57,939 nt of DNA from an uncultured Bacilli bacterium (GTDB lineage: Bacteria; Bacillota_I; Bacilli_A; RF39; UBA660), in contig CANRJN010000001.1 in NCBI GenBank assembly GCA_947630945.1, forward strand, positions 1 to 57,939. The letters are read 5' to 3'. Shown in pieces: positions 1,224-23,770 of the stretch (its first letter is position 1; each line of letters begins with the position of its first letter). Below the pieces are notes generated by a model that saw only the letters and a list, made by a program, of their open reading frames with translations, made no database searches and was not told the origin of the DNA. A program made the translations under genes and the position numbers.

Positions 1224-3076
1224 TATATCATCCTATCTATTAAAGTCTTTATTATAATTTCTGGTAAAAATTCATTATATTTTGATAATGCATTTTTCTT
1301 CATATTAAATAATTTTTCTTGGTTATTTAGTAAATCAACTAATTTATCATAAAAATCATCATTATTTCCAAATTCATAACTAATTCCTGTCATATTATTA
1401 TCAATAATTTCATCAAAATTTTCCCATTTAGCAGCAACGATTGGTAAAGCAGAGGCATAACAATCTAAAATTGTTCCTGGTATTCCCTCTGTTTTAAAAT
1501 GTGTAGGAAATAAAAATACATCATATTTTTTTAAAACACTTACAGTATCATATGGTTCAACTATACCACAATACCTAATTTCATCAGAAAAATTCTTTTT
1601 TAAATTCTCAAAAGTCTCATAATAATTTTTATCTATTGGTCCATAGATATCTAAATATATTTTAAATTTATGGCTTTTTTTATTTATTTTATTAATACAC
1701 CATATTGCATCTTCAATACCTTTTTCAAAAACAATTCTCGATAAAAAACAAGCATTAAATTTATTTTTATTTTTTATTTTTTTTATTTCTTTAATATTTA
1801 TAGGTGTTAAATGTTTAAAATTTTTCATAACTACAACATTTTTTAATCCTAGACTTTCTAATTTATTTTTTAAATTCATATTTTCAGTATAAATATAATT
1901 TAATTCTTTTAAATGTTTTATTAATTTTTTATCATTCTTAGAATTTTCAAATAACCATGATCCAATTAAAATATAATGTAAACATCTATTATATTTTTTA
2001 TTTAATTTATTAAATAATGGAATAAAAACTTTAACACCTTTATGTGCTGTTAGAATTATAATATTTTCGGATTTTTTTATTGCATTTAAACAATTAAAAA
2101 ATAATTTTATAGGATTTTTAATCCAATTATGAGTATCAACAATATTTATATTTTTTTTATCATATATTTTTATTAATTCATTATAAATACTTTCTGTCTT
2201 AATAGTTTGACCTCCAATATTGTTCTTACTTGAACAAAAATGTCCAACTATTGTAGCTTTATAATCAGTTTTATTCATTTTTTTTAATCTTAAAAATCTA
2301 TTAAATCCATAGTTAATAATATTACACATAGTTAAAACTGTTGATATTACTATATTAAAATCATTTACTTCTCTATGCATTTGAAAATGATATTTAATTA
2401 AACCAAACTTACTTCCAGAAGAAATAGAATTTTCATTTTTTCTATAATATGATAAAACATCATTGTATTTATAACCTACTTTTGATTTTTTTAAAAGTCT
2501 ACACCATAATGCATAATCATTTCTTTTTCTTAAATAAGGAATATTTTCTTTTCCTAATTTTTCTTGATTATATATAACTGTTAAACAACCAATAGAATTA
2601 CCAAGTAACATTCTAAAATAGCAAATTTTTTTAGGTGAAACAAACTTTTTATATAATAAATTTCCGTTTTTATCTATATATTCATAATCAGTATAGGAAA
2701 AATAAATTTTATTTTCTTCCATAAAATTAATTTGCTTTTCTAATTTATCTTTTTTCCATAAATCATCACTATCTAAAAAGGCAATATATTTCCCTTTTGA
2801 TTTTTCTATTGCTTTATTTCTAGCAACAGATGCACCACCTTTTTTTTCTAACTTAAAAAATTTAATTCTCTTATCATTTTTTTGATAAGATTTAACAATA
2901 TGTTCTGTTTTATCAGTAGATAAATCATCAACAATAATCATTTCCCAATTTTTATATGTTTGATTTATAACAGATTCTATTGTCTTGCTTATATATTTTT
3001 CACCATTATAAGAAGGTGTTATTATACTTACTAACGGCTTTATATAATCATCTGATGTCATTTTAATCCCTACCAT
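1223..3076 (-). CDS. Two-domain glycosyltransferase: N-terminal GT2 (GT-A) fused to C-terminal GT4-like (GT-B) domain
   Basis: 617 aa. SIITPSYNGEKYI...MIIVDDLSTD and LDSDD motifs (GT2) in the first ~250 aa. C-terminal FPTHFKTEGIPGTILDCYASALPIVA is GT4-like. An alternative ATG at 3061 (MTSDDY) would remove the 14-nt overlap with ugd. Confidence 0.8.
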   Translation of the reverse strand: MVGIKMTSDDYIKPLVSIITPSYNGEKYISKTIESVINQTYKNWEMIIVDDLSTDKTEHIVKSYQKNDKRIKFFKLEKKGGASVARNKAIEKSKGKYIAFLDSDDLWKKDKLEKQINFMEENKIYFSYTDYEYIDKNGNLLYKKFVSPKKICYFRMLLGNSIGCLTVIYNQEKLGKENIPYLRKRNDYALWCRLLKKSKVGYKYNDVLSYYRKNENSISSGSKFGLIKYHFQMHREVNDFNIVISTVLTMCNIINYGFNRFLRLKKMNKTDYKATIVGHFCSSKNNIGGQTIKTESIYNELIKIYDKKNINIVDTHNWIKNPIKLFFNCLNAIKKSENIIILTAHKGVKVFIPLFNKLNKKYNRCLHYILIGSWLFENSKNDKKLIKHLKELNYIYTENMNLKNKLESLGLKNVVVMKNFKHLTPINIKEIKKIKNKNKFNACFLSRIVFEKGIEDAIWCINKINKKSHKFKIYLDIYGPIDKNYYETFENLKKNFSDEIRYCGIVEPYDTVSVLKKYDVFLFPTHFKTEGIPGTILDCYASALPIVAAKWENFDEIIDNNMTGISYEFGNNDDFYDKLVDLLNNQEKLFNMKKNALSKYNEFLPEIIIKTLIDRMI

Positions 3077-4271
3077 ATAAATCTCTTGTATATACTTTTT
3101 CTTTTACATCTTTTAATTCTTCTGTAACTCTATTTGCAATAATTACATTTGAATTTTCCTTAAATTTATCTAAATCATCACATAATTTATAATCATCAAA
3201 ATATTCTTGATTTTTAAGAGTTGGCTCATATATTAAAATTTCAACACCATTATCTTTTAAAATTTTAATAACATCTCTTATGCTACTTGATCTAAAATTA
3301 TCACTTCCAGATTTCATAGTTAATCTATATACACCAACTATGTTTTTACCATTTTGATTTTCATTTAAAATTTTCATAATTCTATCAGCAATAAATTCTT
3401 TTCTAACTGCGTTACTTTCAACAATTGCTGTAATTAATTTTTGTGGAATATCTTTATAATTTGCAAGTAATTGTTTTGTATCTTTTGGTAAACAATATCC
3501 ACCATATCCAAAACTAGGATTGTTATAATACATTCCTATTCTAGGATCTAAGCAAATACCTTCAACAATTTCTTTTGTATTTAATCCGTTTTCCTCTGCA
3601 TAAGAGTCAATTTCATTAAAATACGCTACTCTTAATGCTAAATAAGTATTTGCAAATAATTTAATGCTTTCGGCTGATTTAGTTGTGTCAGTAAATAAAA
3701 CTGGGACATTTTTTTCAATAGCAACATTTTTTAATAATTCTGCAAATACATTAGATGATTTTACTGCTTCTTTACAATTTATATCTCTTCCAACAATAAT
3801 TCTACTTGGATAAAGATTATCATATAATGCTGTTCCTTCTTTACAAAATTCAGGACTAAATATAATATTTTTATAATTATATTTTTTTATTATACTTTCA
3901 GTATATCCAACTGGTATAGTTGACTTTATAACTATTGAAACAGATTGATTAACTTTTAATATATTTTCTATTACACTCTCAATACTACTTGTATCAAAAT
4001 ATCCTTTATTAGCATCATAGTTAGTTGGAGTGGCAATTATTATTAAATCTGCCCATTTATAAACAGGCTCTGCATTTAATGTTGCTTCTAAATCTAAACT
4101 TTCTTCTGCTAAATATCTTTCTACTTCTTTGTCGGCAATAGGAGATTTATGATTATTAATCATATCAACTTTTTCTTTTACTATATCAATTGCTTTAACT
4201 TGATTATCTTTACTCAATAAACAAGCAAGCGATAATCCAACGTATCCTGTTCCTACTATCCCTATTTTCAT
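3063..4271 (-). CDS. ugd: UDP-glucose 6-dehydrogenase
   Basis: 402 aa. MKIGIVGTGYVGLS Rossmann N-terminus and GYGGYCLPKD catalytic-Cys motif, with typical length. Confidence 0.9.
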   Translation of the reverse strand: MKIGIVGTGYVGLSLACLLSKDNQVKAIDIVKEKVDMINNHKSPIADKEVERYLAEESLDLEATLNAEPVYKWADLIIIATPTNYDANKGYFDTSSIESVIENILKVNQSVSIVIKSTIPVGYTESIIKKYNYKNIIFSPEFCKEGTALYDNLYPSRIIVGRDINCKEAVKSSNVFAELLKNVAIEKNVPVLFTDTTKSAESIKLFANTYLALRVAYFNEIDSYAEENGLNTKEIVEGICLDPRIGMYYNNPSFGYGGYCLPKDTKQLLANYKDIPQKLITAIVESNAVRKEFIADRIMKILNENQNGKNIVGVYRLTMKSGSDNFRSSSIRDVIKILKDNGVEILIYEPTLKNQEYFDDYKLCDDLDKFKENSNVIIANRVTEELKDVKEKVYTRDLYGRD

Positions 4272-4412
4272 CTACTACAACACTTCCTTTTGCTTATTGC
4301 TTATATAATTATAACATATTAAAATTAATAATACCATATAAACTATTTTTTTATATTAATCATTTTATTAATTGTTTATTAATTATGATTTTATCATAAC
4401 TTATATTTATAA

Positions 4413-5456
4413 TTAATAATCTGTTTTATATTTATTCAATAAATCATCATAATTTTTATTAGACAATTTCATATAATTTTGTTTAAATCTTTCATATTCT
4501 TGATTCCATGAGTTATATATATATATATTACGATGGTCATCTAAATTATAATTTTCTTTTAAATATTTTGAAAAATATAATGTGTATTTTGTTACGCCAT
4601 TTATATTAAAATGTGCACCATCTTTAAAATCTGTTTGATAATTTATTCCTAACTCTTTGCTATTTTTAAAATTTATGACTTTAAAATTTTTTTCTTTTAA
4701 ATAATTTTCTACATAATTTAATCTTTTTATAGCATAATCATGATAATTTCTTTCAGGAATTACAAACAAAACATTTAATTTTTCTGATTTTATATAATTT
4801 AACAAATCATCTAAAATTTCTTTATTTTCTTTTGGAAGTTCTTCTATTTTGTTATTAGTGTTAGAATTAATATTTACTGTTTTTAACGAATCCTCATTAA
4901 ACCAAAATCCCTTGTAAAAAACTCCTAAATATCTATTAGCAGTACCATCAAAAACATTTTTCCATTTATTATGATACAAAAAATAACTAAAATAATAATC
5001 TAATTTTGATTCGTTAAATTTCTTTTTATAATTTAATGCCACATTTAATAGTTCTAATTTATTTTTTGAAAATTTTAAAGAATCAGTAACTCTTCTTAGA
5101 TTTCCATCACTTTCATCCATAAGATTAATATCATAACCAAATTCAGTTAAAGTTATAACATATAATTTTGGATTTTGATATTTTTGTGCTTCTTTTATTA
5201 AATATTTTAAACAAACAATTGGATGTGAACCAGTAGTTAGAAATGCTGTTGTAAAACCATATTCATTATAAGCTAGTGTAGGATTAAAATGCATAAAAGA
5301 ATTACTTCCACCTAAATATATCACATCAATAGAGTTTTTTGGCTCTTTATAAAAATCGCTTATAGAGGTTTCTTCTAACCATAAAACATTAAAAACTACA
5401 TTAAATAAAATCAAAAAAATAAAAGAAAATAATATAAAATTTATAGCATTTTTCAT
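4413..5456 (-). CDS. Membrane-anchored extracytoplasmic SGNH/DltD-AlgJ-like acyltransferase/esterase, paralog 1 of 5
   Basis: 347 aa with one N-terminal TM helix. YLGGSNS (block-I Ser) and DGAHFN (Asp-x-x-His). Aligns end to end with its four paralogs through shared blocks FYxEPKNSxDVxY, KYQNPKLY, DSxKFSxN, YYFSxxLYHNKWK, LNVLFVIP and NIYIYNSW. Confidence 0.7.
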   Translation of the reverse strand: MKNAINFILFSFIFLILFNVVFNVLWLEETSISDFYKEPKNSIDVIYLGGSNSFMHFNPTLAYNEYGFTTAFLTTGSHPIVCLKYLIKEAQKYQNPKLYVITLTEFGYDINLMDESDGNLRRVTDSLKFSKNKLELLNVALNYKKKFNESKLDYYFSYFLYHNKWKNVFDGTANRYLGVFYKGFWFNEDSLKTVNINSNTNNKIEELPKENKEILDDLLNYIKSEKLNVLFVIPERNYHDYAIKRLNYVENYLKEKNFKVINFKNSKELGINYQTDFKDGAHFNINGVTKYTLYFSKYLKENYNLDDHRNIYIYNSWNQEYERFKQNYMKLSNKNYDDLLNKYKTDY

Positions 5457-5465
5457 TTCTACTCC

Positions 5466-6536
5466 CTAATCAGAAATATTGTTTTTATATTTTAATAAAA
5501 TTGTGTCAAAATCTTTTTTCACATATGAATTGAAATTTTTCTTAAATCTTTCATATTCACTCTTCCATGAATTATATATATATATATTACGACAATCATT
5601 TAAATCATAATTTTCTTTTAAATATTTTCCAAAATAAAGTGTAAATTTTGTTGCTCCATATACATTTAAATGAGCATAATCACATAATTCAGTTTTATAA
5701 TCTATTTTAAAATCTTCTAAATTATTAAAGTTAATAACTTGATAATTTTCTCTTTCAATAAGATTTTTAGCATAATTTAATTTTTTAATACCACCATTAT
5801 CATATGTTCTAGCAGGTATAATAAACAAAACATTTAAATCATTGTCTTTTATATATTTTAATAAATCTAATAAGGCTTTTTCATTAAAATTAGATAATTT
5901 AATAATATCATTATTCCATTCATAGTCATCATATTTTACTATTTTTTCACTAAAACTATATCCTTTATATAAATCATTTCTTTCACGTTTTGCAGTACCT
6001 TTAAATACATCTTTCCATTTATTATGATATAAAACAAAACTAAAATAATAATTTATATAATTTTTATTATTTTCACCATTATTTTCTAACAACTCATTTA
6101 TTAAATTTAACCTATTTAGTGAAAATTTCATTGAATCTACTCCATTTCTAATTCTTCCCTCATCAGGTAAATTATCATTTAATATTTGTCCTAAATCAAT
6201 TACGAAAATTTTTGGATTTTGATATTTTTTTGCTTCTTCTATAAAATATTTAACTGTCAAAAAAGATTGAGAATGGTATGCAAAAAGCCCTGTTGTAAAA
6301 CCATATTCATTATAGGCTAACGTTGGATTAAAATGAGAAATAACATTACTACTTCCAACATAGACTATATCTAATGAATTTTTTGGTTCTTCATAAAAAT
6401 AATTAATAGATGTTTTTTCTAACCATAAGACGTTAAAAACAATTTTAAACAATATTAAAAAAATTGCTACAAAACTAATTATTTTTACTACATTTTTCAT
6501 TACAAACTCCTTTAATCCATTATTTTTTATATTCAT
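5466..6536 (-). CDS. SGNH/DltD-AlgJ-like protein, paralog 2 of 5
   Basis: 356 aa. YVGSSNV and DYAHLN motifs plus an N-terminal TM helix. The real start is probably the internal MKNVVKII (ATG at 6500), which removes the overlap with the upstream paralog. Confidence 0.7.
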   Translation of the reverse strand: MNIKNNGLKEFVMKNVVKIISFVAIFLILFKIVFNVLWLEKTSINYFYEEPKNSLDIVYVGSSNVISHFNPTLAYNEYGFTTGLFAYHSQSFLTVKYFIEEAKKYQNPKIFVIDLGQILNDNLPDEGRIRNGVDSMKFSLNRLNLINELLENNGENNKNYINYYFSFVLYHNKWKDVFKGTAKRERNDLYKGYSFSEKIVKYDDYEWNNDIIKLSNFNEKALLDLLKYIKDNDLNVLFIIPARTYDNGGIKKLNYAKNLIERENYQVINFNNLEDFKIDYKTELCDYAHLNVYGATKFTLYFGKYLKENYDLNDCRNIYIYNSWKSEYERFKKNFNSYVKKDFDTILLKYKNNISD

Positions 6537-7545
6537 TTATTAAATAATCATAATTCTCTTTAAAAATTTTTTTATAATTTTCTTCCAAACGTATATGTTC
6601 TTTTTCCCATGAACTATATATATATATATTACGATGATCACTTAAATTATATTTTTCTTTTAAATATTTTCCAAAATATAAAGTATATTTTGTTGCACCA
6701 AAAATATTTAAATGTCCGCCATCATTAAAATCTTTTAAATAATCTATTTTATAATCTTCTAAATTATTAAAGTTAATAACTGAATAATTTTTATTTTCAA
6801 TTATTTTTGAGGCCTCATTTAATTGTCTTGCAACTGTATTATTAAAAATTCTTGCTGGAATGACAAATAATACATTTAAATCATTCTCTTTTATATATTC
6901 TAATAAATCTAATAATTCTTTATGATTGTATTCTGGTAATTCCCTAGTATCTTCTACCCATTTGTAACTTATTTGTGGTTCAATTTTATCATTAAAAGTA
7001 TATCCCTTATATAAATTTTCATTTTCATTTTTTAAATCGCCACTTAAAATATCTTTCCATCTATTATGATATAAATTAAAACTAAAATAATAATTTATAT
7101 AATCAGTATATGGAACACTATAGTGTGATAATTTTTTATTTATAAGTTTAATACGATTTAAAGAAAATTTCATTGAATCTGCTCCTGTTCTTATTTCACC
7201 TGAATCAATATTTTTATGCTCATTAATAATTTGTGCAATATCAATGATATAAAGTTTTGGATTTTGATATTTTCTTACTTCTTCTATAAAATATTTAATT
7301 GTATCAAATGATTGTGAATAAGTAGCATATATACTAGTAGTAAATCCATATTCTTTATATGCTAATGTTGGAATATAATGTGCTATTACATTACTAGATC
7401 CAATATAAGCAACGTCCATAGAATTTTTTGGTTCCTCATAAAAATAACTAATTGATGTTTTTCTTAACCAAAGAGTATTAAAAACTTCTATAAATAAAAT
7501 AACAAAAATAATTAAAAATAGCGTTGCTTTTATTACTTTTTTCAT
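6520..7545 (-). CDS. SGNH/DltD-AlgJ-like protein, paralog 3 of 5
   Basis: 341 aa. YIGSSNV and DGGHLN motifs, N-terminal TM helix, same conserved blocks as its neighbours. Confidence 0.7.
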   Translation of the reverse strand: MKKVIKATLFLIIFVILFIEVFNTLWLRKTSISYFYEEPKNSMDVAYIGSSNVIAHYIPTLAYKEYGFTTSIYATYSQSFDTIKYFIEEVRKYQNPKLYIIDIAQIINEHKNIDSGEIRTGADSMKFSLNRIKLINKKLSHYSVPYTDYINYYFSFNLYHNRWKDILSGDLKNENENLYKGYTFNDKIEPQISYKWVEDTRELPEYNHKELLDLLEYIKENDLNVLFVIPARIFNNTVARQLNEASKIIENKNYSVINFNNLEDYKIDYLKDFNDGGHLNIFGATKYTLYFGKYLKEKYNLSDHRNIYIYSSWEKEHIRLEENYKKIFKENYDYLINEYKK

Positions 7546-7570
7546 TAATTATTAATTCCTTTCATGTTGT

Positions 7571-8611
7571 TTAATAATTATTTAAATAATAATCAAAATT
7601 TTGTTTAGTCATATTTTCAAAATCTTTTTTAAACCTTTCATATTCTTTATCCCATGAATTATATATATTCGAATTTTCATTTTTAATATTGTATTTTTCA
7701 CTTATATATTTTCCAAAATAAAGTGTAAATTTTGTTGCTCCATATACATTTAAATGTGATGAATCTTTAAAATCTGTACCATAATCTATATTCAAATCTT
7801 CAACTTCGTTAAAATTAATTACATCATAATTATAAGAATTTATAATTTTTGAGGTATTATTTAATTTTTGTTGATATTCTGTTGAATAAAGTCTAGGTGG
7901 TATTATAAATACTACATTTAAATCATTTTCTTTTATATAATTTAATAAATCATATAATATCTCTTTTTCTTCATTATTTATTTCAATTTCTTTTGTACTC
8001 CATTTTTCTTCATTTTGTGGTCTAATTCTTATAGAGCCTTCTTTTTCATCAAATATAAAACCCTTATAAATTGTATCATCTTCTCTTTTTATTGATCCAT
8101 CAAACAAATACTTCCATTTATTATGATATTTTAAAAAACTAAAATAATAATTAATGTAATTTCTATCTTTTTCATCATAATATTTTAATATATTATTAAT
8201 TAAGTTTATTCTGTTTAATGAAAATTTCATTGAATCAGTTATATTTCTAGTTCTTCCTTCATCATAAACTATGTCTTCATTATTAATTTGTACTAAATCG
8301 ATTACATAAAGTTTCGGATTCTGATATTTTTGTGCTTCTTTTATTAAATATTTTATTGCAATAAATGATTGAGAATGCCATGATAAAAGACTAGTAGTAA
8401 ATCCATATTTATTAAATGCAAGAGTTGGATTAAAATGCATAACAACATTACTTGAACCTAAATAAACAACATCTATTGAATTTTTGGGTTCTTCATAAAA
8501 ATAACTTATAGAATTTTTTCTTAACCATAATTTATCAAAAACAAAAGAAAATATTAAAATAAATATAATGCAAAATATAATACTTTTTATAATTTTTTTC
8601 ATATACTTCAC
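7571..8611 (-). CDS. SGNH/DltD-AlgJ-like protein, paralog 4 of 5
   Basis: 346 aa. YLGSSNV and DSSHLN motifs with an N-terminal TM helix. It is the only paralog lacking the IYIY/(TA)n tract (NIYNSW instead). Confidence 0.7.
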   Translation of the reverse strand: MKYMKKIIKSIIFCIIFILIFSFVFDKLWLRKNSISYFYEEPKNSIDVVYLGSSNVVMHFNPTLAFNKYGFTTSLLSWHSQSFIAIKYLIKEAQKYQNPKLYVIDLVQINNEDIVYDEGRTRNITDSMKFSLNRINLINNILKYYDEKDRNYINYYFSFLKYHNKWKYLFDGSIKREDDTIYKGFIFDEKEGSIRIRPQNEEKWSTKEIEINNEEKEILYDLLNYIKENDLNVVFIIPPRLYSTEYQQKLNNTSKIINSYNYDVINFNEVEDLNIDYGTDFKDSSHLNVYGATKFTLYFGKYISEKYNIKNENSNIYNSWDKEYERFKKDFENMTKQNFDYYLNNY

Positions 8612-8620
8612 CTAACAATT

Positions 8621-10147
8621 TTAAAAATTTCTATAAATAAATGTAGTTGGATCATAACCTACACCGTAACAACCAAAAATAATAATAAAGAATATTAGTG
8701 AAAATAATATAATCCATCTAAATACTATATTTTGATTAAATAGTTTTTCTCTGACTGATCCTGTTCTTGATAATAGTTCAACTATAAATAATACTACTAA
8801 TGAAATAATTAAAATTATAAAATCATATCTATCTAAACCAGCAGTATATAGCATATTTAAATTAAAGAAATTTAAAAAGTTGAGAGGAACCATACTTTTA
8901 ATGATTTCTAATCCATTTGTAACACTACTTGCTCTAAAAAATATCATAGAAAATGAGAATAATAAATAAGTTCTCAAAACTTGATATAGCTTATAACTAA
9001 ATACATCTGTTTTTATTCCTATTTTTTTATTTATTTTATCTGATAATGGTCCTAATAAATCTTCAAAGAATATATAAATAAATTGTAATAATCCCGTTGC
9101 AATTATAAATGTGTAAGCACCTCCATGCCATATACCTATAATTATCCACATCACAAACATAGATATAAACATTGGAATTTTTTTGCCAACCTTTTTACCA
9201 AATTTATCTTTACAAATTTTATTTAATTTTTGCATTAAATCTGATTTTAATAATGGATAAAATATATAATCTTTTAACCACGCGCCCAGTGTAATATGCC
9301 AATTTCTCCAAAATTCTGTTATAGTTTTTGAGAAAAATGGAACTTTAAAATTTTCTGGTAATTCAATTCCGATAATCTCACTTACACCCATTATTATGTC
9401 AATTGATCCTGAAAAGTTTGTATAAAGTTGTAATGGAAATAATAAAGCAGCAAAAATTGTGTATAATCCATAAAATTTACTATAATTTCCATAAACTCCA
9501 TTTACAAAATACCCTATTCTAGTAGATATAACTATTATTTTAAATACTCCCCATAATATTCTTACAAGCCCACTACACATTCTATCATAATTGAATTTAT
9601 GACCTTCAAATAATTTTTCTCTCATATCTTCATATCTAATAAAAGGTCCTGAACTTAAAATTGGAAAATATGTCATAAACAAAGCACTTTTAAATATATT
9701 TTTTTCTGCTTTTGAGCCTCTATAAACATCTGTTAAATATCCAATCATAATTAAAGAATAATAACTAAGACCTATTAATGAATTTCTTTCAACTAAATTA
9801 AACTTAAAATTTATATTAAATAAATTACATATATGATGAATAGTTATTAAAAATAAATTTGAATATTTAAAATAAATTAAAACTAATAATATTAATGTAA
9901 TACCTATTAACAGAAACACTTTTGATTTTTTAGTATTTTTATATTTTTCTATTAATCTAGCAAATATATATGCTGATAAAAAAACTATTAATGCTTGTAT
10001 TACCGTTATAACATTAAAATTTTTATAAAATAAGAAAAATAAACTTGATAATAATAACACTATCCATTTTATTTTTTTAGGAATCACAAAATAAATTAAA
10101 ATTGTTATAATGCAAAATACTGCAAAAACTAAACTTGTTAAATTCAT
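8621..10147 (-). CDS. MBOAT-family membrane O-acyltransferase (DltB/AlgI/PatA-like)
   Basis: 508 aa, polytopic. FWRNWHITLGAWLKDYIFYPL and IIGIWHGG (conserved His) are MBOAT signatures. Confidence 0.85.
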   Translation of the reverse strand: MNLTSLVFAVFCIITILIYFVIPKKIKWIVLLLSSLFFLFYKNFNVITVIQALIVFLSAYIFARLIEKYKNTKKSKVFLLIGITLILLVLIYFKYSNLFLITIHHICNLFNINFKFNLVERNSLIGLSYYSLIMIGYLTDVYRGSKAEKNIFKSALFMTYFPILSSGPFIRYEDMREKLFEGHKFNYDRMCSGLVRILWGVFKIIVISTRIGYFVNGVYGNYSKFYGLYTIFAALLFPLQLYTNFSGSIDIIMGVSEIIGIELPENFKVPFFSKTITEFWRNWHITLGAWLKDYIFYPLLKSDLMQKLNKICKDKFGKKVGKKIPMFISMFVMWIIIGIWHGGAYTFIIATGLLQFIYIFFEDLLGPLSDKINKKIGIKTDVFSYKLYQVLRTYLLFSFSMIFFRASSVTNGLEIIKSMVPLNFLNFFNLNMLYTAGLDRYDFIILIISLVVLFIVELLSRTGSVREKLFNQNIVFRWIILFSLIFFIIIFGCYGVGYDPTTFIYRNF

Positions 10148-10162
10148 AATACTCCCTACTTT

Positions 10163-10897
10163 CTACATTATATTACCATTTGTAATGGCAATATTTTGTC
10201 CTGTTATACTTCCAGCTGAATCATGTAATAAAAATTCAATTAATGGAAGTACTTCTTCAACTGTTAAATTTGCTCCTGTTGGACTATTCATAGCATTTTG
10301 CTGTACTAATAATTCTGGAACATTTTGTAAAAATTTTGTTTCTATCATAGTTGGAGATACACCATTTATTCTTATACCTTTATCAGCATATTCAGTTGAC
10401 AATGCTTTTACTAAACCAAGTAAAGCATATTTAGAAGTAACATATGATGATAAATATTTTGGAGGAATATTTGTTGTACAAGAAGTTAACATTACAACAA
10501 TTCTTCCAAATTTATTTTTAGACATTATTGGTAAAAAGCCATTCAATATTATTACTAATGAACGAAGTGCTATATTTATATCTGTTTGGAATTTTTCCCA
10601 AGTAATTTTATTAAATTTAATATTTTCAAATTTTCCTGCTGGAAGATGAACTATATGTGTTGGAACTTTATTCATATTTTTTATTTCTTCTACAAATTTA
10701 TAAGTATCTTCTTCATCTAAAAAGTTTCCCTTTAATAAAATTAATTTATCACCTATTTCATTTTTTAATTCTTGTAATTTACTATCATCACCAACATGAT
10801 GAGCAATAATATAATTATAATCATTGTAAATATTTTTAATTAAATTTGTACCTATATCACTTGATGCACCTGTTACTAATAATATTTTTTCATTCAT
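10163..10897 (-). CDS. Short-chain dehydrogenase/reductase (FabG-like)
   Basis: 244 aa. TGASSDIG cofactor-binding motif and S...YVTSK (YxxxK) catalytic motif. Confidence 0.85.
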   Translation of the reverse strand: MNEKILLVTGASSDIGTNLIKNIYNDYNYIIAHHVGDDSKLQELKNEIGDKLILLKGNFLDEEDTYKFVEEIKNMNKVPTHIVHLPAGKFENIKFNKITWEKFQTDINIALRSLVIILNGFLPIMSKNKFGRIVVMLTSCTTNIPPKYLSSYVTSKYALLGLVKALSTEYADKGIRINGVSPTMIETKFLQNVPELLVQQNAMNSPTGANLTVEEVLPLIEFLLHDSAGSITGQNIAITNGNIM

Positions 10898-11324
10898 CTA
10901 AAACACCTACTTTCATAGTACCTCTTGTTACTTTTTCATTTTTATTATTTAATATTTCATATTTTATTGTAAATTCTTTGAATATTTCATTCTTATCAAT
11001 TACTTTTCCTTTTATTGTAAGTGGACTATCTTTTAAATAAACTGGTTTTTTAAATAAGATTTCAACACTATGAATTAAACTATATTTTCCGGGTAAATAT
11101 ACACCTGCAAGTGTTGATAAAAATGATGAAGTGAGCATTCCATATACTACTCTATCTTCATAACCTTTTGATAATGCAAACTCTTTATCATTATGAAGTG
11201 AATTTATATCTCCTGTAATATTTAAAAAAGCATTCATTTTTTCTTTTGTAATTTCACCAGTAAATTCACACTCAAGTCCTACTTTTATATCTTCAAATTT
11301 ATATTCATTCATTTTTAACCTCAT
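10890..11324 (-). CDS. MaoC-like (R)-hydratase/dehydratase, hot-dog fold
   Basis: 144 aa. GDINSLHNDKEFA matches the MaoC hydratase motif G-D-x-N-x-L-H-x5-A. The start may be the internal MNEYKF. Confidence 0.8.
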   Translation of the reverse strand: MRLKMNEYKFEDIKVGLECEFTGEITKEKMNAFLNITGDINSLHNDKEFALSKGYEDRVVYGMLTSSFLSTLAGVYLPGKYSLIHSVEILFKKPVYLKDSPLTIKGKVIDKNEIFKEFTIKYEILNNKNEKVTRGTMKVGVLDE

Positions 11325-11331
11325 CTTTTAT

Positions 11332-12375
11332 CTAATAAATATCATACTCTTTTATCAATTTTTCAAAATCTTTATTAGTTAATTCTTTAAATTTTTCTTT
11401 AAATTTTATATATTCTCGGTTCCAAGAATTATATATATATATATTGTCACGATGATTTGGTAAATTATAATTTTCTTTTAAATATTTTGAAAAATATAAT
11501 GTATATTTTGTTGAACCATAAATATTTAAATGAGAAGTATTATAAAAATCTGTTTCAAAGTTAATATTTAAATCTTCTAATGTATTAAAATTAACAACAT
11601 TTAAATTATTTTCATTTATTATTTTAATAACTTCATTTAACCTTTTGTCACTATCTTTTGAATATGTTCTAATAGGAACTACAAAAACAACATTAAGGTT
11701 ATTTTGTTTTATATAATCTATCAAATTTTGTAAAACTATTTTATTTTCTTCTTGAAGCGAATTTGACTCAGATGACCAATTATATTTATCCATTTTATAA
11801 GTTTCCACTGTTTTTTCAATTATTTCAAAACCTTTAAACAACTCTCTATTTTCAATTTCTCCGTTTAATAAATCTTTCCATCTATTATGGTATATCAAAA
11901 AACTAAAATAATAATTTATATATTCTTCTTTTGCGGTATCTTTATATGATAATATTTTATTAATTACATCTATTCTATTTTGCGTAAATTTCATTGAATC
12001 AGGAAGTTGTCTAAATTCCCCATCAGTATATGCAGACAAATTATCAGCTGCTTTTGCTAAATCTATTATATATAATTTTGGATTTTGATACTTTTGAGAT
12101 TCTTTAATTAAGTATTCTGTTCCAGCAAAATTTTGAGCATCAGTAGTCATTAGACCTGTTGTAAATCCATATTTTTCAAATGCAAGTGTTGTATTAAAAT
12201 GTTGATATGCATTACTATGTCCTATATAAATAACATCTAAGGAATTTTTAGGTTCTTCATAAAAATAACTTAATGGTGTTTTTTTTATCCATAAATAATT
12301 AAAAATGACATTCCACAAAACAATAAAAATCAAAACAAAAGAAATTATTTTAAAAATAATTACATATTTTTTCAT
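11332..12375 (-). CDS. SGNH/DltD-AlgJ-like protein, paralog 5 of 5 (separated from the tandem four)
   Basis: 347 aa. YIGHSNA and NTSHLN (Asn where the others have Asp), N-terminal TM helix, NIYIYNSW block. Confidence 0.7.
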   Translation of the reverse strand: MKKYVIIFKIISFVLIFIVLWNVIFNYLWIKKTPLSYFYEEPKNSLDVIYIGHSNAYQHFNTTLAFEKYGFTTGLMTTDAQNFAGTEYLIKESQKYQNPKLYIIDLAKAADNLSAYTDGEFRQLPDSMKFTQNRIDVINKILSYKDTAKEEYINYYFSFLIYHNRWKDLLNGEIENRELFKGFEIIEKTVETYKMDKYNWSSESNSLQEENKIVLQNLIDYIKQNNLNVVFVVPIRTYSKDSDKRLNEVIKIINENNLNVVNFNTLEDLNINFETDFYNTSHLNIYGSTKYTLYFSKYLKENYNLPNHRDNIYIYNSWNREYIKFKEKFKELTNKDFEKLIKEYDIY

Positions 12376-12380
12376 AATTT

Positions 12381-12623
12381 CTATTTTACTCTACTTAATA
12401 TAATATCAACCATTTCTCCAACATTTTTCATTGAAGTAACTTCATTCATATTAAATTTCATACCAAATTCTTGTTCAATTGCTACTACTAAATTAATATG
12501 TTCTAAACTATCCCAATCTTCAATATCATTTGAAGTTGTTTCTGGTTTTACAACTATTGAGTCATCATCAAATATGTCTCTAAAAACATTATTTAATCTT
12601 TCATATACTTCTTCTTTTTTCAT
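12381..12623 (-). CDS. Small acyl/peptidyl carrier protein (DltC-sized)
   Basis: 80 aa. IEDWDSLEHINLVVAIEQEFG contains the D-S-L phosphopantetheine attachment motif. Its start abuts the stop of the FkbH-like gene. Confidence 0.85.
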   Translation of the reverse strand: MKKEEVYERLNNVFRDIFDDDSIVVKPETTSNDIEDWDSLEHINLVVAIEQEFGMKFNMNEVTSMKNVGEMVDIILSRVK

Positions 12624-14401
12624 TATTCCTTCACCTCTATTACATTATTTTTATTCTCATAATTATCTAACTCTAATTTATAAGTTTTGTTTCCATCACT
12701 ATCACATGATAATAATTCAAATCCTTGAGTTTCATAAAATTCTTTAACCATTTTATTCTTTTGAGTTGGATAATAATAACCATAAATTGTTTTAATACCT
12801 TTTTCAAGTGATTTTTTAACAAGTTCATCCATCATAGCAAATTCCATATCTCTTTTTAATACTCTACAACTCATTATCCATAAGTCTATATGTAATTCTT
12901 TTTTCTTTTTGATATGTCCTATTACTACTGATATAACACCATTATCTCCAAATATATCTTCAAGTTTTCCATAAATTTTAATATATTCATCACTATTATT
13001 AACTTCTTCTATATCAGCAAGTGAATATCTCTTAGTAGTTAAATTAAATTGATTACTCTTGTTACTAAGTTGTGAAATTCTCTCTAAATATATTGGTTTA
13101 AATGTGGATATTTCTGCTACCATTTTTAATGATTTTAAATAATCATCATAATTATCAAATGTAGCCATCATTTGACTTCTTTTTGCATTATCTTTATAAA
13201 GCTCTGTTTTCTTAATATCTTCTTCACTAAAATTAGTTACTTCAAAATATGCATTTCTATCTATAATTCTTATATAATTTTCTGGTACATCTATTTCAGG
13301 AGTTGCTATACCTTCAATATATGTTTTAACAATATTTCTCTCAGCTGGGTTATCATCTACAAACACAAAACTATCAGCACCTAAATTTAATTCTTCTGCT
13401 ATATCTTTTGTATTCATATTTTTAGGATTCCAGTTTGCTTTAATTATTATAAAGTCTTCTGGTCTTAAAGCCCCTGCTGGATGATTTAATCCTGCTATCG
13501 CATTTTCATAATCATTTTTAGAGTTAACATTTAAGATAATACCTAAGTTTTTATGTTCTTTTAAATATTCTTGGAATTCTAAATAAACTTGGCCTGTTGG
13601 TACTTCTGGACCAATACTTAAATTATCAACTCCATCATCTCCAACTATTCCACCCCATAATGTATTATCTAAATCAAGTACAAATGCTTTTTTATTTTTA
13701 CCATAAATTGATTTAATAATATTTGCTATATTAAATGATAAATAAGGAATTGCTGGTACTTCCATTGCATATTTATACATATGCCAATAGAATTGATTAG
13801 CCCACTTATCTAATCCATAACATGATGATACATAATTAATATCATTTATAAAGAAATTTTTAGTTATATTTGCATAATCATAAAATTTTTGATTTAATCT
13901 TGTAATATAATTAATTTTACCATGAATATCACTAGCATCTTTATTACCCAGTAAACGATAATATGGATATTCAAAATTATTTTGAATAATAGTTGCATTA
14001 AATTTATTTAATAATGAATCCCATACTTTTTCAAATTTATCATATTCTGCTTGTAACATTTCATCAACTGTTTTTTTATCATCAAGCATTGTTGGATAAT
14101 TAGTAATATTTCTATTAGTTGTGTGAATATAGATTATATCTGGATTAAATTCATTTAATTCATCATTTCCAAATACAGCATCTTCATAAAATTTATTATA
14201 CTCAGATTCATAAAAAGTTGGTTTAATTCCATAGTTTAATAAAAATAATTCTAACATATTTTTTATTTCACTAGTCGTTGAACCACCAAGTATTGCTATT
14301 TTCTTTTCAATAAAATTATCTTTTTGTAACAATTCTTTTTTAATTTTCCTTTTGTTTTTGATTAATAAATCCGCATCAAAAGGATATTCTAACTCTTTCA
14401 T
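12623..14401 (-). CDS. FkbH-like HAD-IIIC phosphatase/acyl-loading enzyme
   Basis: 592 aa. FVLDLDNTLWGG (HAD DxDxT), FVDDNPAERN (HAD motif IV) and a C-terminal GNAT-like region with IMSCRVLKRDME, the conserved Cys box of the FkbH family. Confidence 0.8.
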   Translation of the reverse strand: MKELEYPFDADLLIKNKRKIKKELLQKDNFIEKKIAILGGSTTSEIKNMLELFLLNYGIKPTFYESEYNKFYEDAVFGNDELNEFNPDIIYIHTTNRNITNYPTMLDDKKTVDEMLQAEYDKFEKVWDSLLNKFNATIIQNNFEYPYYRLLGNKDASDIHGKINYITRLNQKFYDYANITKNFFINDINYVSSCYGLDKWANQFYWHMYKYAMEVPAIPYLSFNIANIIKSIYGKNKKAFVLDLDNTLWGGIVGDDGVDNLSIGPEVPTGQVYLEFQEYLKEHKNLGIILNVNSKNDYENAIAGLNHPAGALRPEDFIIIKANWNPKNMNTKDIAEELNLGADSFVFVDDNPAERNIVKTYIEGIATPEIDVPENYIRIIDRNAYFEVTNFSEEDIKKTELYKDNAKRSQMMATFDNYDDYLKSLKMVAEISTFKPIYLERISQLSNKSNQFNLTTKRYSLADIEEVNNSDEYIKIYGKLEDIFGDNGVISVVIGHIKKKKELHIDLWIMSCRVLKRDMEFAMMDELVKKSLEKGIKTIYGYYYPTQKNKMVKEFYETQGFELLSCDSDGNKTYKLELDNYENKNNVIEVKE

Positions 14402-14517: not shown

Positions 14518-14805
14518 TCATTTTTTATTTTTTACAATTATTTCATCTTTTTCTACTTCTTTATTCTTATTTTCATCAATTCCTAATTTTTTACTTATTT
14601 TCTTTTTTGCTTTTCTAAAATAAATTCCTAAAAAAGCACCTACTGCAATTACTACTCCAGCAATTGCTTGTATTGCATAAGTCATTACAGATGGATCGAT
14701 ATATGCTTTTGCATTTATTGTGAAAATAAACATAAATCCAAATGCAATAAACATATAAGAAACATATAACATTTTATTTTTCATTTTTATTCTTCCTTTC
14801 TTCAA
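14518..14805 (-). CDS. Small two-TM membrane protein, unknown function
   Basis: 95 aa ORF with two hydrophobic helices and a Lys-rich tail. The real start is probably an internal Met (MKNKMLY or MLYVSYM), which reduces the 32-nt overlap with the upstream gene. Confidence 0.45.
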   Translation of the reverse strand: MKKGRIKMKNKMLYVSYMFIAFGFMFIFTINAKAYIDPSVMTYAIQAIAGVVIAVGAFLGIYFRKAKKKISKKLGIDENKNKEVEKDEIIVKNKK

Positions 14806-16849
14806 CTTTTCTTTGAATTGTATTTATAATATAATTTGCACCAACAACAGAACTTTTACCAATATTATAAACATATTCTTTCACTAAATTTTCTATTTCT
14901 TTCTGATAATCCTTATAATTATTTAATATATTTTCTACTATCTTATCTAAATTATTTATTTCTTTTAAAGAAACAACTTCTCCCATTTTTTCTCTTGCCC
15001 AAATATTAAAAGGTTCAACTTTTATATTTTTATATTCTGGATTCATCACTTTCATAGGAGTGTCTATAAAAATAACAGGTTTATGGGTAGTAAATGAATA
15101 TTCATATGCAATTCCAGACCAATCACTTATAAGAATATCTGCATTAAATACAGTATCATTTTTGGAAAAATCCGTTTCTATTATTATATTTTTTTCATTT
15201 TTATATTTTTGCTTCATATTTAAAAATTTTTGTTTCATTAATTTTACTTGTTGAGGATGTGGTCTAACTATTACTTGATAATTCTTATTTTTTAATTTAT
15301 TTAGTATTTCTTCTAAACATAGATCTATTATATTATCTTTTTGCCAAGATGGCGCAATTAATATTTTTTTTATTTTATTCACTTTCTTTTGAGATTTGTA
15401 ATCATTTATCATATCATCTAAAAGTGAATAACCCCATTTAACAATTTTTCTATCATTTAAATTATAATATTCATTTGTTTTAATAGCCTCTTCATACTGA
15501 TGCTTACCAACAACAAATACTGTGTTAAAAGCATTCATAGAACATGTACGCATAGTTAAATTTAAACTATCCATAGCATGTGGAATATAAATATATTCTA
15601 TATCTTTTCTAACAATACTTTTCTTTATGTGATAATTGTCTAAATCCGGCATAGTCATAACGACTACATCAGCATCTATTTTCATCATTAAAGTAATCAA
15701 TCTTTTTTCATCTATAAAATATGCTTTTATTTGTGAATATTTCTTTTCTAATTCAAATATCTTATCATCATAATCACTAGTTATATAATGAATTATTATA
15801 TTTGTATTTTTTAATAGATATTCTATAATTCCCTTATAATATTTATAAAAACCATTGCTTTCAGAATAAAATACTAAATGCTTATTTACTATATTGAAAA
15901 ATTTTTTATAGTCTTCTTTTGATTTAATTTTTTCATTATGAGTTAATTTTATCTTTTTATTAATTTCATTTAATTTTTTTAACTCATTATTTGTTTGTTC
16001 TAATTCCTCATAATTTATATACTTTTTAGGATTTATAAAAATATTTAAAAACCATTGTTGTATTATTGCAAATAAATTGCTAAATACCCAATATAGTGCT
16101 ACACCTGCTGGTACAAAACTTCCTAAATATAGTGATAAACCTACTGAAAAAAACATCATTCCATATTTATTCCAATTAGACTGCTCCGCTTGTAATACAT
16201 TAATTTTATTTTGAAATATGCATAAAATTAATGCACTCAAACCTGCTATCAAAGGTATTAAAATAGAAATTCCAAGTTCATTGCTTGCAATTAATGTTAA
16301 ATCAAAACCTAAGAAGTTAAGATTTAATTTATTTATTTTTTCTATATATTCTTTTTCATTTAATAATTCTGAATATTCATTTATGTATTTATTACTTTTT
16401 ATATCATTAACAACATTTATTTCTAATGAGGATGATTCAACATCTAAAGAATTGTTTTTTACAGAAATATTAATCATATCTTGTGAAATTTCTTTAGGTA
16501 TATTTAATATATAAGTTAATGGATGATTTATTACATTTACTAATCCAATCAACAATAGAATTTGTATTAATAAAGGAATCAATGATGCAAAAGCATTATA
16601 ATTTTCTTTTTTAAATAACTTTGACTCCTCATCAGCAATTTTATCTTTATCACCAAAATAATTTATTTTAATTTTATTAATGTCTGGCTGAATTTTTACC
16701 ATTTTAATTGAATTTTTTTGCACCCATATTGATAATGGTAATAATATTATTTTACTAATTAATGTAAATAAGATTATTGCAATACCATAATTTTTAAATA
16801 TTTTATAGCAAAAATTCATTATAAAACCCAATATATCTACTAATATCAT
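14774..16849 (-). CDS. Fusion protein: YidC/Oxa1-type membrane insertase domain + CDP-glycerol glycerophosphotransferase (TagB/TagF family) domain
   Basis: 691 aa. The N-terminal ~270 aa carry NYGIAIILFTLISKIILLPLS...MVKIQPDINKIK...PAGVALYWVFSNLFAIIQQ (YidC signature). The C-terminal part carries VRPHPQQ and LISDWSGIAYEYSFTTHKPVIFID (TagF-family signature). Confidence 0.75.
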   Translation of the reverse strand: MILVDILGFIMNFCYKIFKNYGIAIILFTLISKIILLPLSIWVQKNSIKMVKIQPDINKIKINYFGDKDKIADEESKLFKKENYNAFASLIPLLIQILLLIGLVNVINHPLTYILNIPKEISQDMINISVKNNSLDVESSSLEINVVNDIKSNKYINEYSELLNEKEYIEKINKLNLNFLGFDLTLIASNELGISILIPLIAGLSALILCIFQNKINVLQAEQSNWNKYGMMFFSVGLSLYLGSFVPAGVALYWVFSNLFAIIQQWFLNIFINPKKYINYEELEQTNNELKKLNEINKKIKLTHNEKIKSKEDYKKFFNIVNKHLVFYSESNGFYKYYKGIIEYLLKNTNIIIHYITSDYDDKIFELEKKYSQIKAYFIDEKRLITLMMKIDADVVVMTMPDLDNYHIKKSIVRKDIEYIYIPHAMDSLNLTMRTCSMNAFNTVFVVGKHQYEEAIKTNEYYNLNDRKIVKWGYSLLDDMINDYKSQKKVNKIKKILIAPSWQKDNIIDLCLEEILNKLKNKNYQVIVRPHPQQVKLMKQKFLNMKQKYKNEKNIIIETDFSKNDTVFNADILISDWSGIAYEYSFTTHKPVIFIDTPMKVMNPEYKNIKVEPFNIWAREKMGEVVSLKEINNLDKIVENILNNYKDYQKEIENLVKEYVYNIGKSSVVGANYIINTIQRKVEERKNKNEK

Positions 16850-16857
16850 ATTAATCC

Positions 16858-18456: not shown

Positions 18457-18466
18457 ACTTTTACCT

Positions 18467-20290: not shown

Positions 20291-20381
20291 TATACTTCCT
20301 CCAAAATTAAAAATAATTCTAATGATATTTATAAATTGTTATTAAAAAGCATTATATTATTTTATTGTTTTTTGCACTAAT

Positions 20382-20410
20382 ATTATAACTTATATATATA
20401 TATATTGCAA
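20382..20410 (-). promoter_or_regulatory. Near-consensus sigma-A promoter whose 17-nt spacer is mostly a (TA)7 tract
   Basis: Minus strand reads TTGCAA (20410-20405), tatatatatatataagt (17 nt), TATAAT (20387-20382). It lies ~90 nt upstream of the CDS starting at 20290 and just downstream of the LCP terminator. Confidence 0.55.
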
Positions 20411-20458
20411 GACTAAATTAAAAAAACTATTATTCACATTTATCATCGCTAGCCATTA

Positions 20459-20483
20459 AAAAACTATCAAATTGATAGTTTTT
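20459..20483 (-). terminator. Rho-independent terminator of the LCP gene
   Basis: Perfect 12-nt inverted repeat aaaaactatcaa / ttgatagttttt around one central base. On the minus strand it is followed by a T-run, 11 nt past the stop at 20494. Confidence 0.6.
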
Positions 20484-20493
20484 AATTTTTATA

Positions 20494-23750: not shown

Positions 23751-23770
23751 ACATTTTCCTTTCTAATTTT

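Follow-up and report, generated by a model that had tools for sequence, protein, structure and literature searches.

Introduction

Esters on bacterial surface polymers, D-alanyl and acetyl groups among them, govern how well cells resist antimicrobial peptides and lysozyme, how phages adsorb and how the immune system recognises the bacterium. Enzymes of the FkbH family have the established activity of making glyceryl-S-acyl carrier protein (glyceryl-S-ACP) with 1,3-bisphosphoglycerate as the substrate, and the loading modules of trans-acyltransferase (trans-AT) polyketide synthases (PKSs) in which FkbH is combined with a dehydratase (DH) and a ketoreductase (KR), such as those of bryostatin BryA and FR901464, are proposed to make lactyl-S-ACP. 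Among the pathways built on an MBOAT and an SGNH protein, Dlt is the only one known to depend on a carrier protein, and the others are reported to use an acyl-CoA donor without any carrier (Anderson et al., 2025, PMC12148441). The same work places the FxYxxF motif on a separate microprotein, DltX, in the Dlt pathway, and at the fused C-terminus of PatA, AlgI and similar MBOATs, of which PatA auto-acetylates the tyrosine from acetyl-CoA (PMC12148441). Here we analyze a 57,939-nt stretch of DNA from an uncultured Bacilli bacterium of the gut (GenBank assembly GCA_947630945.1, contig CANRJN010000001.1; the whole stretch is called the window below), in which a single operon encodes an FkbH-type loader, an ACP, a MaoC-type dehydratase, an SDR reductase, an MBOAT and five DltD-like SGNH proteins. 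All functional claims on this cassette rest on computation, and on that basis we think it probable that the operon specifies an MBOAT-SGNH pathway fed by a carrier protein, in which a polymer of the envelope, outside the cytoplasm, is O-acylated with a C3 hydroxy-acyl group derived from glycerate.

Results

The operon fills positions 4413-14401 of the window, which is very AT-rich (about 21% GC), with ten open reading frames (ORFs) on the minus strand that either overlap or are separated by gaps of 0-25 nt. These are the ten genes, in the same order and on the same strand, that a preliminary description of this DNA had listed, and its statement that no DltA-like adenylating enzyme is present also stands, as Pfam and NCBIfam profile searches found neither an adenylating enzyme nor an AMP-binding domain in the ten operon proteins. 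The same searches found in the operon no acyltransferase other than the MBOAT and SGNH proteins, and no ketosynthase, FabH-like enzyme, PKS or nonribosomal peptide synthetase (NRPS), or thioesterase. Scanning positions 4000-15000 gave fewer promoter-like sites than in shuffled sequence and no terminators.

The loader (12623..14401) is a protein of 592 residues with matches to TIGR01686, PF21211 (FkbH_N) and HAD-IIIC models, in which an FkbH_N domain is joined to a HAD phosphatase and, at the C-terminus, to a domain for acyl transfer. The TIGR01686 match proposed as a check in the preliminary description reaches 255.9 bits, above the cut-off of 146.65, and covers profile positions 3-321 of 323. 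The motif residues are D243-L-D245-N-T247, K295, D349/D350 and S511-C512-R513, so that both the catalytic aspartate box (DLDNT, from residue 243) and the cysteine box (SCR, 511-513) are intact. An alignment with 150 diverse cluster representatives (32-56% identity) shows conservation of 96-99% at these positions (D243 99%, D245 99%, T247 96%, C512 98%). Residues 30-393, which comprise the N-terminal and HAD domains, match the crystal structure 3slr in the PDB (structural-genomics protein BF1531; E 2e-49), and residues 29-577 share 28% identity with an FkbH that a Methylosinus plasmid encodes within a textbook tetronate/PKS cluster. The family as a whole comprises 13,609 cluster representatives at E<=1e-3. 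Because of its family membership and its intact motifs, the window enzyme is predicted to form glyceryl-S-ACP from 1,3-bisphosphoglycerate. As to the genomic context of BF1531, no fetched locus was more than 37% identical to this protein. A 2554-residue FkbH-containing protein (P0478) was considered as a PKS and rejected; its Pfam domains are of the radical-SAM/SPASM kind, and it was therefore not used as a PKS comparator.

The gene for the stand-alone ACP (12381..12623) begins within that of the loader, its start codon overlapping the FkbH stop codon, so the two are translationally coupled. The 80-residue product matches PF00550 and the generic NCBIfam ACP models, not the DltC family, and its best PDB match is 2lml, a "putative ACP" (E 5e-20), within a set of matches to ACPs of the fatty acid synthase (FAS)/PKS type. 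Its phosphopantetheine serine is Ser39, in a DSL motif, and its net charge is -9.

The MBOAT (8621..10147; 508 residues, PF03062) has its catalytic histidines at H284 (WRNWH) and H341 (WHG), and both are invariant in 43 homologs. DltB is its nearest solved relative, by sequence (E 2e-13) and by Foldseek (E 4.8e-12, TM score 0.75 to 6bug), and the window protein is longer by about 90 residues. The best NCBIfam match is likewise DltB (TIGR04091), at 126.2 bits far below the cut-off of 375. The extreme C-terminus reads F503-I-Y505-R-N-F508, an FxYxxF acyl-shuttle motif that is found at the same end of 77 of the 82 related MBOATs in the fetched loci. The shuttle motif is fused to the MBOAT and there is no separate DltX; a small upstream ORF with two transmembrane (TM) helices is not kept in related loci. 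Of the earlier label "DltB/AlgI-like", then, the MBOAT assignment and the AlgI/PatA-type fused motif hold good, and membership of the DltB type does not.

The MBOATs that lie beside FkbH-ACP genes also carry a 17-residue, Lys-rich insertion between WRNWH and WHG, at a point where their ACP-less relatives have the compact turn "IPLGGNRKG". In the window protein the insertion is K301-SDLMQKLNKICKDKF-G317, and the segment 297-323 has a net charge of +7. Both phmmer and MAFFT alignments place it on DltB residues 302-317. DltC is contacted by Met302, Val305, Ile306 and Met309 on helix HC of DltB, with salt bridges to Lys312 and Arg317 (Zhang et al., PMC11035591). The AlphaFold (AF2) model of the window MBOAT, with a mean predicted local distance difference test score (pLDDT) of 89.6, shows residues 303-316 as a discrete amphipathic helix, where the local pLDDT is about 92. 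The protein is thus a hybrid, PatA/AlgI-like in its architecture and not of the DltB type, with a basic helix at the DltC-docking position.

The operon has five DltD-like SGNH paralogs, 48-58% identical to one another. Paralog A (11332..12375; 347 residues) is encoded between the ACP and MaoC genes and is the ortholog of the single copy found beside the MBOAT in most related genomes, and the remaining four follow the MBOAT gene: paralog B (7571..8611; 346 residues, GSSN and DSSHLN, 50% identical to paralog A), paralog C (6520..7545; 341 residues, GSSN and DGGHLN), paralog D (5466..6536; 356 residues, GSSN and DYAHLN) and paralog E (4413..5456; 347 residues, GGSN and DGAHFN). B to E are assigned by paralog identity, motifs and membrane anchor, and A by its AF2 model, Foldseek and motifs. 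None of the five has a Pfam, NCBIfam or PDB sequence-family match, and the DltD family is not among their Pfam and NCBIfam matches; the paralogs' own family is small, with 185 matches among 5.8 billion clusters, none of them with a name or a Pfam domain. The AlphaFold model of paralog A, built from 60 homologs, has a pLDDT of 93.3, and its ten best Foldseek matches in the PDB are all DltD (3bma, 6pfx, 7dxm, 6o93), with TesA and PatB coming after them, the match to DltD being modest (E 6e-4 to 2e-2, TM score 0.35-0.42). All five share the nucleophile motif G-x-S-N, which follows the first strand, and (D/N)-x-x-H-(L/F)-N, which precedes the last helices, and in paralog A the corresponding G-H-S54-N and H282 contain a serine and a histidine that are nearly invariant in the 60 homologs. 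The Ser/His motifs in all five and the DltD-like fold modelled for paralog A agree with the earlier count of five DltD/SGNH-like proteins. Each has a single N-terminal hydrophobic helix whose N-terminal tail has a mean net charge of +2.2, compared with +0.4 for the 15 residues that follow, and this positive-inside difference predicts an N-in/C-out topology, as in DltD. The SGNH domains are therefore predicted to be extracytoplasmic, rather than cytoplasmic.

A further feature of this family is an F-Y-x-E-P motif just after the membrane anchor (residues ~36-44), nearly invariant across 60 aligned members and represented in paralog A (window 11332-12375) by SYFYEEPKNS. The motif may serve to contact the MBOAT, or else the Tyr shuttle peptide of the latter.

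The operon also encodes two predicted tailoring enzymes. The MaoC-type (R)-specific hydratase/dehydratase (10890..11324; 144 residues) matches PF01575, of the hot-dog fold, at 41.6 bits and carries the hydratase-2 motif GDINSLH at residues 37-43 (Asp38, His43), and its best PDB matches are HTD2 (3ir3) and PhaJ (5cpg/1iq6). PhaJ and HTD2 are dehydratases of short-chain (R)-3-hydroxyacyl thioesters. The FabG-like SDR reductase (10163..10897; 244 residues; PF13561/PF00106, with FabG/YmfI-like NCBIfam matches) retains TGASSDIG (TGxxxxxG) and Y152-x-x-x-K156. By analogy with the PKS loading modules mentioned above, MaoC is predicted to dehydrate glyceryl-S-ACP to enol-pyruvoyl- or pyruvoyl-S-ACP, and the predicted role of the SDR is to convert pyruvoyl-S-ACP by reduction into lactyl-S-ACP; a published table lists D-lactyl-ACP as the product of FkbH loading modules (PMC7901079).

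The MaoC and SDR genes are present in about half of the related cassettes. In the remainder their slot, in the interval between ACP and MBOAT, is taken by a 127-residue VOC/Glyoxalase_4 protein (MKFHHIGIAT...) whose best NCBIfam similarity, methylmalonyl-CoA epimerase, is sub-threshold at 32.5 bits. With L numbers denoting the fetched related loci, the VOC gene occurs in L002, L005, L009, L011, L015, L024, L026-L028, L031, L034, L043, L081 and L082, and in the last of these it adjoins the MBOAT gene although FkbH-ACP is displaced by 5 kb. By analogy, the VOC variants would epimerise glyceryl-S-ACP. A few loci of the clade contain both tailoring modules, or one together with the decaying remnant of the other; the frameshifted VOC gene beside MaoC/SDR in L025 and the SDR remnant after VOC in L016 suggest that the modules have been swapped recently. 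In diverse taxa (L160, L149, L133, L165) the MaoC and SDR pair follows directly on FkbH-ACP. The earlier proposal that MaoC and SDR tailor an ACP-bound C3 unit is in keeping with their intact catalytic motifs, with the qualification that sister loci use VOC instead.

A genome scan with the MBOAT gave about 40 loci at 56-80% identity, nearly all from rabbit-gut metagenome-assembled genomes (MAGs) labelled "uncultured Bacilli/Clostridia"; one homolog bears the name Candidatus Onthocola. In these loci FkbH-ACP sits with MBOAT-SGNH wherever the contig is long enough to show it, and this linkage is kept in L018, L025, L033 and L036, where the gene order of the cassette is permuted. The ACP gene adjoins FkbH in 36 clade loci whose ACP match is full-length, and in L030 it directly abuts the MBOAT gene. 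A reciprocal search starting from two divergent FkbH homologs recovered the MBOAT again, together with a dedicated phosphopantetheinyl transferase (PPTase, ACPS), whose divergently transcribed gene is found in about 11 clade loci. The co-inheritance of ACP, loader and PPTase with the MBOAT argues, at the level of gene content, against a donor that would be acyl-CoA only. Median identity to the window proteins falls from 83% for FkbH and 84% for the ACP to 72% for MaoC/SDR, 66% for the MBOAT and 45-51% for the SGNH proteins, a gradient that fits conserved cytoplasmic chemistry and fast-evolving exposed parts. Distant MBOATs (29-38% identity; Lachnospiraceae, Oscillospiraceae) have an SGNH-like partner only, with no FkbH or ACP. 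The FkbH-ACP-MBOAT-SGNH neighbourhood, whose survey across Bacillota the preliminary description had proposed, is thus conserved in about 40 loci of the clade, and it recurs in distant phyla.

This recurrence was seen in a metagenome scan with the diverse FkbH alignment, which gave 80 loci at 42-61% identity; their GC content is 27-62%, and the samples come from the human gut, the rumen, marine sites and soil. An ACP is detectable somewhere in 58 of the 80 loci, and within 1.5 kb of FkbH in 56 of them; an MBOAT is present in 41, and where at least 6 kb of sequence is available on each side (22 loci), it lies within 6 kb of FkbH in 16. Typical orders are FkbH-ACP-MBOAT, FkbH-ACP-MaoC-SDR-MBOAT and FkbH-ACP-VOC-MBOAT, and most of these cassettes are without MaoC and SDR, having VOC or no tailoring gene. 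The linkage of FkbH to MBOAT spans at least three MBOAT subfamilies and several phyla. MBOATs of the window subfamily that are next to an ACP always have a His-His spacing of 54-57, meaning that the insertion is present, and other FkbH-linked subfamilies have a spacing of 60 or of 40-43, some being of the canonical PLGG type.

The cassette also occurs in a cultured and genetically tractable host. On pSymB of Sinorhizobium meliloti (40 records) the genes VOC, MBOAT, DltD-like, ACP and FkbH-like follow one another in that order, as in L166 (CP140883.1 1049937-1055816) and L164 (S. meliloti 2011 pSymB, ~623-633 kb). The MBOAT ends in FLYQGF, and the DltD-like protein of 409 residues has an N-terminal TM anchor and GGST...DPGH motifs; by these sequence features its "TonB-dependent receptor" label looks like a misannotation.

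The genes on either side of the operon, also on the minus strand, concern the envelope. Downstream (132..4271) Pfam identifies a GT4 glycosyltransferase, a GT2+GT1 fusion and UDP-glucose dehydrogenase (Ugd). Upstream (14518..21942) Pfam and NCBIfam identify the ORF with two TM helices, a YidC-like protein, a sulfatase-domain (LtaS-like) protein, an NTP-transferase/CobD-like fusion and an LCP ligase. Of the flanking genes named in the preliminary description, ugd, the glycosyltransferase and the LCP gene are matched by Pfam, LtaS corresponds to a weak Sulfatase-domain match of 33 bits, and TagF has to be dropped, there being no protein of the Glyphos_transf family among the window ORFs scanned. 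Neighbours of the cassette differ from genome to genome: the downstream glycopolymer genes are not part of the conserved cassette and vary among related loci, the upstream genes are not conserved with it except occasionally the LCP gene, and no homolog of the YidC-like gene or of the gene for the two-TM protein was found in L001-L080. The Ugd and glycosyltransferase genes are the likely context of the acceptor polymer, and the surrounding genes together point to a wall- or membrane-linked glycopolymer as the acceptor.

Several other features of the window deserve mention. The NTP-transferase/CobD-like fusion (threonine-phosphate decarboxylase or HisC-type, pyridoxal phosphate-dependent) lies at 18467-20290, 4 kb upstream of FkbH, and a close homolog (665 bits) is directly upstream of FkbH-ACP in two unrelated metagenome loci, L136 (7365-) and L137 (1-); the fusion may be functionally tied to the cassette, for example through an activated amino-alcohol phosphate substituent. 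The YidC/Oxa1-family insertase directly upstream of the operon (14774-16849) has 691 residues, some 400 over the usual length. Positions 23090-26642 encode a UbiA prenyltransferase resembling decaprenyl-phosphate phosphoribosyltransferase (186 bits), a HAD protein of 674 residues and two half-size EamA proteins, a group that resembles a pathway to a polyprenyl-phospho-pentose donor, something unusual in the Bacillota, and a Bac_transf priming transferase (26682-27434) adjoins it. At the edge of the glycopolymer block, on the opposite strand, is an ISNCY-family transposase (27795-29087; 246.5 bits against a cut-off of 250 bits). Three gene pairs of an RloB-like protein and an AAA_21 ATPase (32191-34046, 38004-39912, 51587-53440) are candidate defence modules of the OLD/Abi type, two of them flanking the housekeeping genes rseP-cdsA, and a Fic protein is encoded at 34319-35059. 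An ORF of 1960 residues (45588-51470) has no Pfam or NCBIfam match; with a sortase gene nearby (43932-44699), it is probably a sortase-anchored surface protein.

Discussion

The proposal that the operon is a dlt-like, carrier-dependent system for surface O-acylation, in which FkbH replaces DltA, is consistent with all the computational tests run, and a scheme can be drawn from it. The HAD domain of FkbH would remove the phosphate of 1,3-bisphosphoglycerate, Cys512 would hold the glyceryl group, and the group would be loaded on the phosphopantetheine of the ACP. MaoC would then act across C2-C3 of glyceryl-S-ACP to give the enol-pyruvoyl or pyruvoyl thioester, from which the SDR would give lactyl-S-ACP; in the VOC-bearing sister genomes VOC would instead epimerise glyceryl-S-ACP, and the MBOAT would deliver the epimerised glyceryl group. 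The later steps are extrapolated from Dlt and PatAB. The acidic acyl-ACP (-9) would dock on the MBOAT at its Lys-rich helix 303-316 on the cytoplasmic side (segment charge +7), His341 and His284 would move the acyl group across the membrane onto Tyr505 (FIYRNF), as in PatA, and the acyl-tyrosine would pass it to the catalytic serine of an SGNH protein, which would esterify the polymer. The presence of five SGNH paralogs suggests that they would serve different acceptor positions or different polymers.

A number of observations weigh against this scheme. As to the carrier, DltC is not among the best 60 of the 95 PDB matches of the ACP, which is thus not DltC-like; no PPTase gene was found adjoining the window operon; and some GC-rich FkbH-MBOAT loci show no ACP. 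The residue-by-residue alignment of the insertion with helix HC lies in a poorly conserved loop, and all insertion-bearing MBOATs of the clade belong to one lineage, so that within the clade the correlation between insertion and ACP amounts to one evolutionary event. In L042, a Lachnospiraceae MAG, the MBOAT (10001-11524) has the insertion with no FkbH or ACP within 10 kb, and several FkbH-adjacent MBOATs of other lineages, with a His-His spacing of 40-43, are without it. The basic insertion is therefore ruled out as a strict marker of ACP linkage, and the rule holds only in the MBOAT subfamily of the window. Furthermore, FkbH-ACP has other partners or none: it occurs with a WcbI-type putative acetyltransferase, and no MBOAT, in Niveispirillum; Subdoligranulum has FkbH-ACP-MaoC-SDR with no MBOAT within 9 kb; and 6 of the 22 well-flanked metagenome loci are without an MBOAT within 6 kb of FkbH. 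Because it is found with other partners such as WcbI and without MBOAT, FkbH-ACP gives the impression of a general acyl-donor module, whose most frequent partner is an MBOAT. Lastly, a fused FxYxxF typifies the MBOATs for which use of acyl-CoA is reported, so that acetyl-CoA could simply be the donor of the window MBOAT too.

Some of these loci have features of their own. The neighbours of the L042 MBOAT are PPDK, MurB, WhiA, HPr, diacylglycerol kinase, an SGNH-like protein and an LtaS-like sulfatase, and either its carrier is encoded elsewhere or its insertion has another role. Loci L106, L112, L114, L117-L120 and L122, from human gut metagenomes (~60% GC), consist of an FkbH homolog, a 370-residue protein and a PLGG-type MBOAT; no ACP was detected in them and the 370-residue protein has no family match, so they may represent an ACP-independent variant, or their ACP may be encoded elsewhere. 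Downstream of the Subdoligranulum FkbH-ACP-MaoC-SDR genes, no clear transferase was found.

The main rival is an arrangement in which the operon serves two functions, the MBOAT and SGNH proteins being an ordinary acetyl-CoA O-acetyltransferase pair of the PatA/PatB or AlgI/AlgJ type and FkbH, ACP, MaoC and SDR a separate route to a glycerate- or lactate-derived building block, which another enzyme would add to the polymer in the cytoplasm. The shuttle motif of the acyl-CoA-using class, the plain MBOAT+SGNH pairs that are the closest ACP-less relatives, the FkbH-ACP modules found with other transferases or with no MBOAT, the canonical PLGG type of some FkbH-adjacent MBOATs and the exception in L042 all speak for it. 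We nevertheless consider it rather improbable: the window operon encodes no other acyltransferase, the SGNH gene between the ACP and MaoC genes interleaves the two supposed functions, the linkage survives rearrangements and is seen in several phyla and in no fewer than three MBOAT subfamilies, VOC in L082 stays with the MBOAT although FkbH-ACP is 5 kb away, and the linked MBOATs bear a basic helix at the DltC-docking position. A cassette for a small secreted or lipid-bound natural product, tetronate-like or a glycerate-containing lipid, is a far more distant prospect, to which we attach very little weight. The characterised FkbH enzymes do act in polyketide and tetronate pathways and MBOATs also occur in cyanobacterial natural-product clusters, but such a product is unlikely because the operon has no ketosynthase, FabH-like enzyme or PKS, and no NRPS or thioesterase either; its partners are five membrane-anchored proteins with a DltD-like fold, its MBOAT bears the shuttle motif of polymer acylation, and its context is one of glycosyltransferases, Ugd, LCP and a priming transferase.

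Within the carrier-dependent acylation pathway that we prefer, the identity of the acyl group is a question apart. That it is lactyl in the window genome is a tentative assignment, to which we give somewhat less than an even chance, and the sole ground for it is the analogy with PKS loading modules. We hold it less likely still, though a serious contender, that the pathway is the same and the group is not lactyl, being instead glyceryl (with MaoC/SDR acting on another substrate) or some other C3 derivative, for example pyruvoyl, hydroxypyruvoyl or 3-hydroxypropionyl. MaoC+SDR is missing from about half of the clade and from most of the metagenome cassettes, and untailored or epimerised glyceryl must therefore be an acceptable donor; the abutting ACP and MBOAT genes of L030 point the same way. 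On the other hand, MaoC and SDR are catalytically intact by motif, the pair is kept after FkbH-ACP in taxa as diverse as those of L160, L149, L133 and L165, and lactyl is what the simplest chemistry yields when a 3-hydroxyacyl thioester dehydratase and then a ketoreductase act on glyceryl-S-ACP.

If the acylation pathway is as proposed, it would be a second carrier-protein-dependent route, in which a HAD/Cys enzyme captures a glycolytic acyl-phosphate and no ligase dependent on ATP takes part, and it would add C3 hydroxy-acyl esters as a new class of substituent, lactyl being an uncharged isostere of D-alanyl. It would also provide an MBOAT sequence marker for the type of donor (ACP or CoA) and explain a large set of unannotated genes of gut and soil bacteria. 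The chances seem to us evenly balanced that FkbH- and ACP-fed MBOAT-SGNH cassettes form a widespread, unrecognised third class beside the Dlt and acetyl-CoA classes, making glyceryl, epi-glyceryl or lactyl esters in gut Bacillota, rhizobia and environmental bacteria, with swaps of tailoring modules diversifying the acyl group, expansion of SGNH proteins diversifying the acceptor, and the basic helix inserted after WRNWH serving as a transferable dock for the carrier protein, from which the donor type could be predicted on the MBOAT sequence alone.

In relation to described systems, the cassette belongs to MBOAT-SGNH envelope acylation, and its combination of an ACP donor, a fused shuttle, an FkbH loader and on-carrier tailoring is undescribed. 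In the literature searched we found no published function for this gene set and no paper that ties FkbH or HAD-IIIC proteins to the acylation of polymers by an MBOAT, which agrees with the preliminary description, where the system was not recognised as a described one. As proposed, it resembles Dlt in that a small carrier protein would bear the acyl thioester, an MBOAT would pass the acyl group across the membrane to the tyrosine of FxYxxF and an anchored SGNH protein with a DltD-like fold would finish the transfer; the helix of the window MBOAT is at the position of the DltC-docking helix HC, and DltB and DltD are the best structural matches. It differs from Dlt in having no DltA, ATP-dependent adenylation being replaced by an FkbH/HAD loader acting on a glycolytic acyl-phosphate, and in the proposed acyl group, a hydroxy-acid instead of an amino acid, so that no positive charge would be added. 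Furthermore, its carrier is a FAS/PKS-type ACP, its shuttle motif is fused to the MBOAT in place of DltX, and it has tailoring enzymes that would act on the carrier and five SGNH paralogs rather than one.

With the PatA/PatB class (AlgI/AlgJ/AlgX, WssH/WssI, PatA1/PatB1) the cassette shares an MBOAT of about 500 residues whose extra C-terminal helices end in FxYxxF, and a separate extracytoplasmic SGNH partner with no microprotein. Unlike that class, it includes an ACP, a loader and tailoring enzymes, and in its relatives often a PPTase; a 17-residue basic insertion replaces the canonical "PLGGNRKG" turn, and the SGNH fold is DltD-like, not PatB- or AlgX-like. The loader has the layout of the FkbH/OzmB/Tmn16 synthases, with an N-terminal domain, a HAD domain with DxDxT, a C-terminal Cys domain and an adjacent stand-alone ACP, yet its product would go to an MBOAT and not to a ketosynthase, a FabH-like enzyme or methoxymalonyl enzymes. 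Finally, the FkbH-DH-KR modules of trans-AT PKSs likewise bring together an FkbH loader, a dehydratase and a ketoreductase, the latter two working on a C3 unit bound to an ACP, whereas the MaoC-fold and FabG-like enzymes of the window are free-standing and unrelated to PKS DH and KR domains, and their product would decorate a polymer instead of priming a polyketide.

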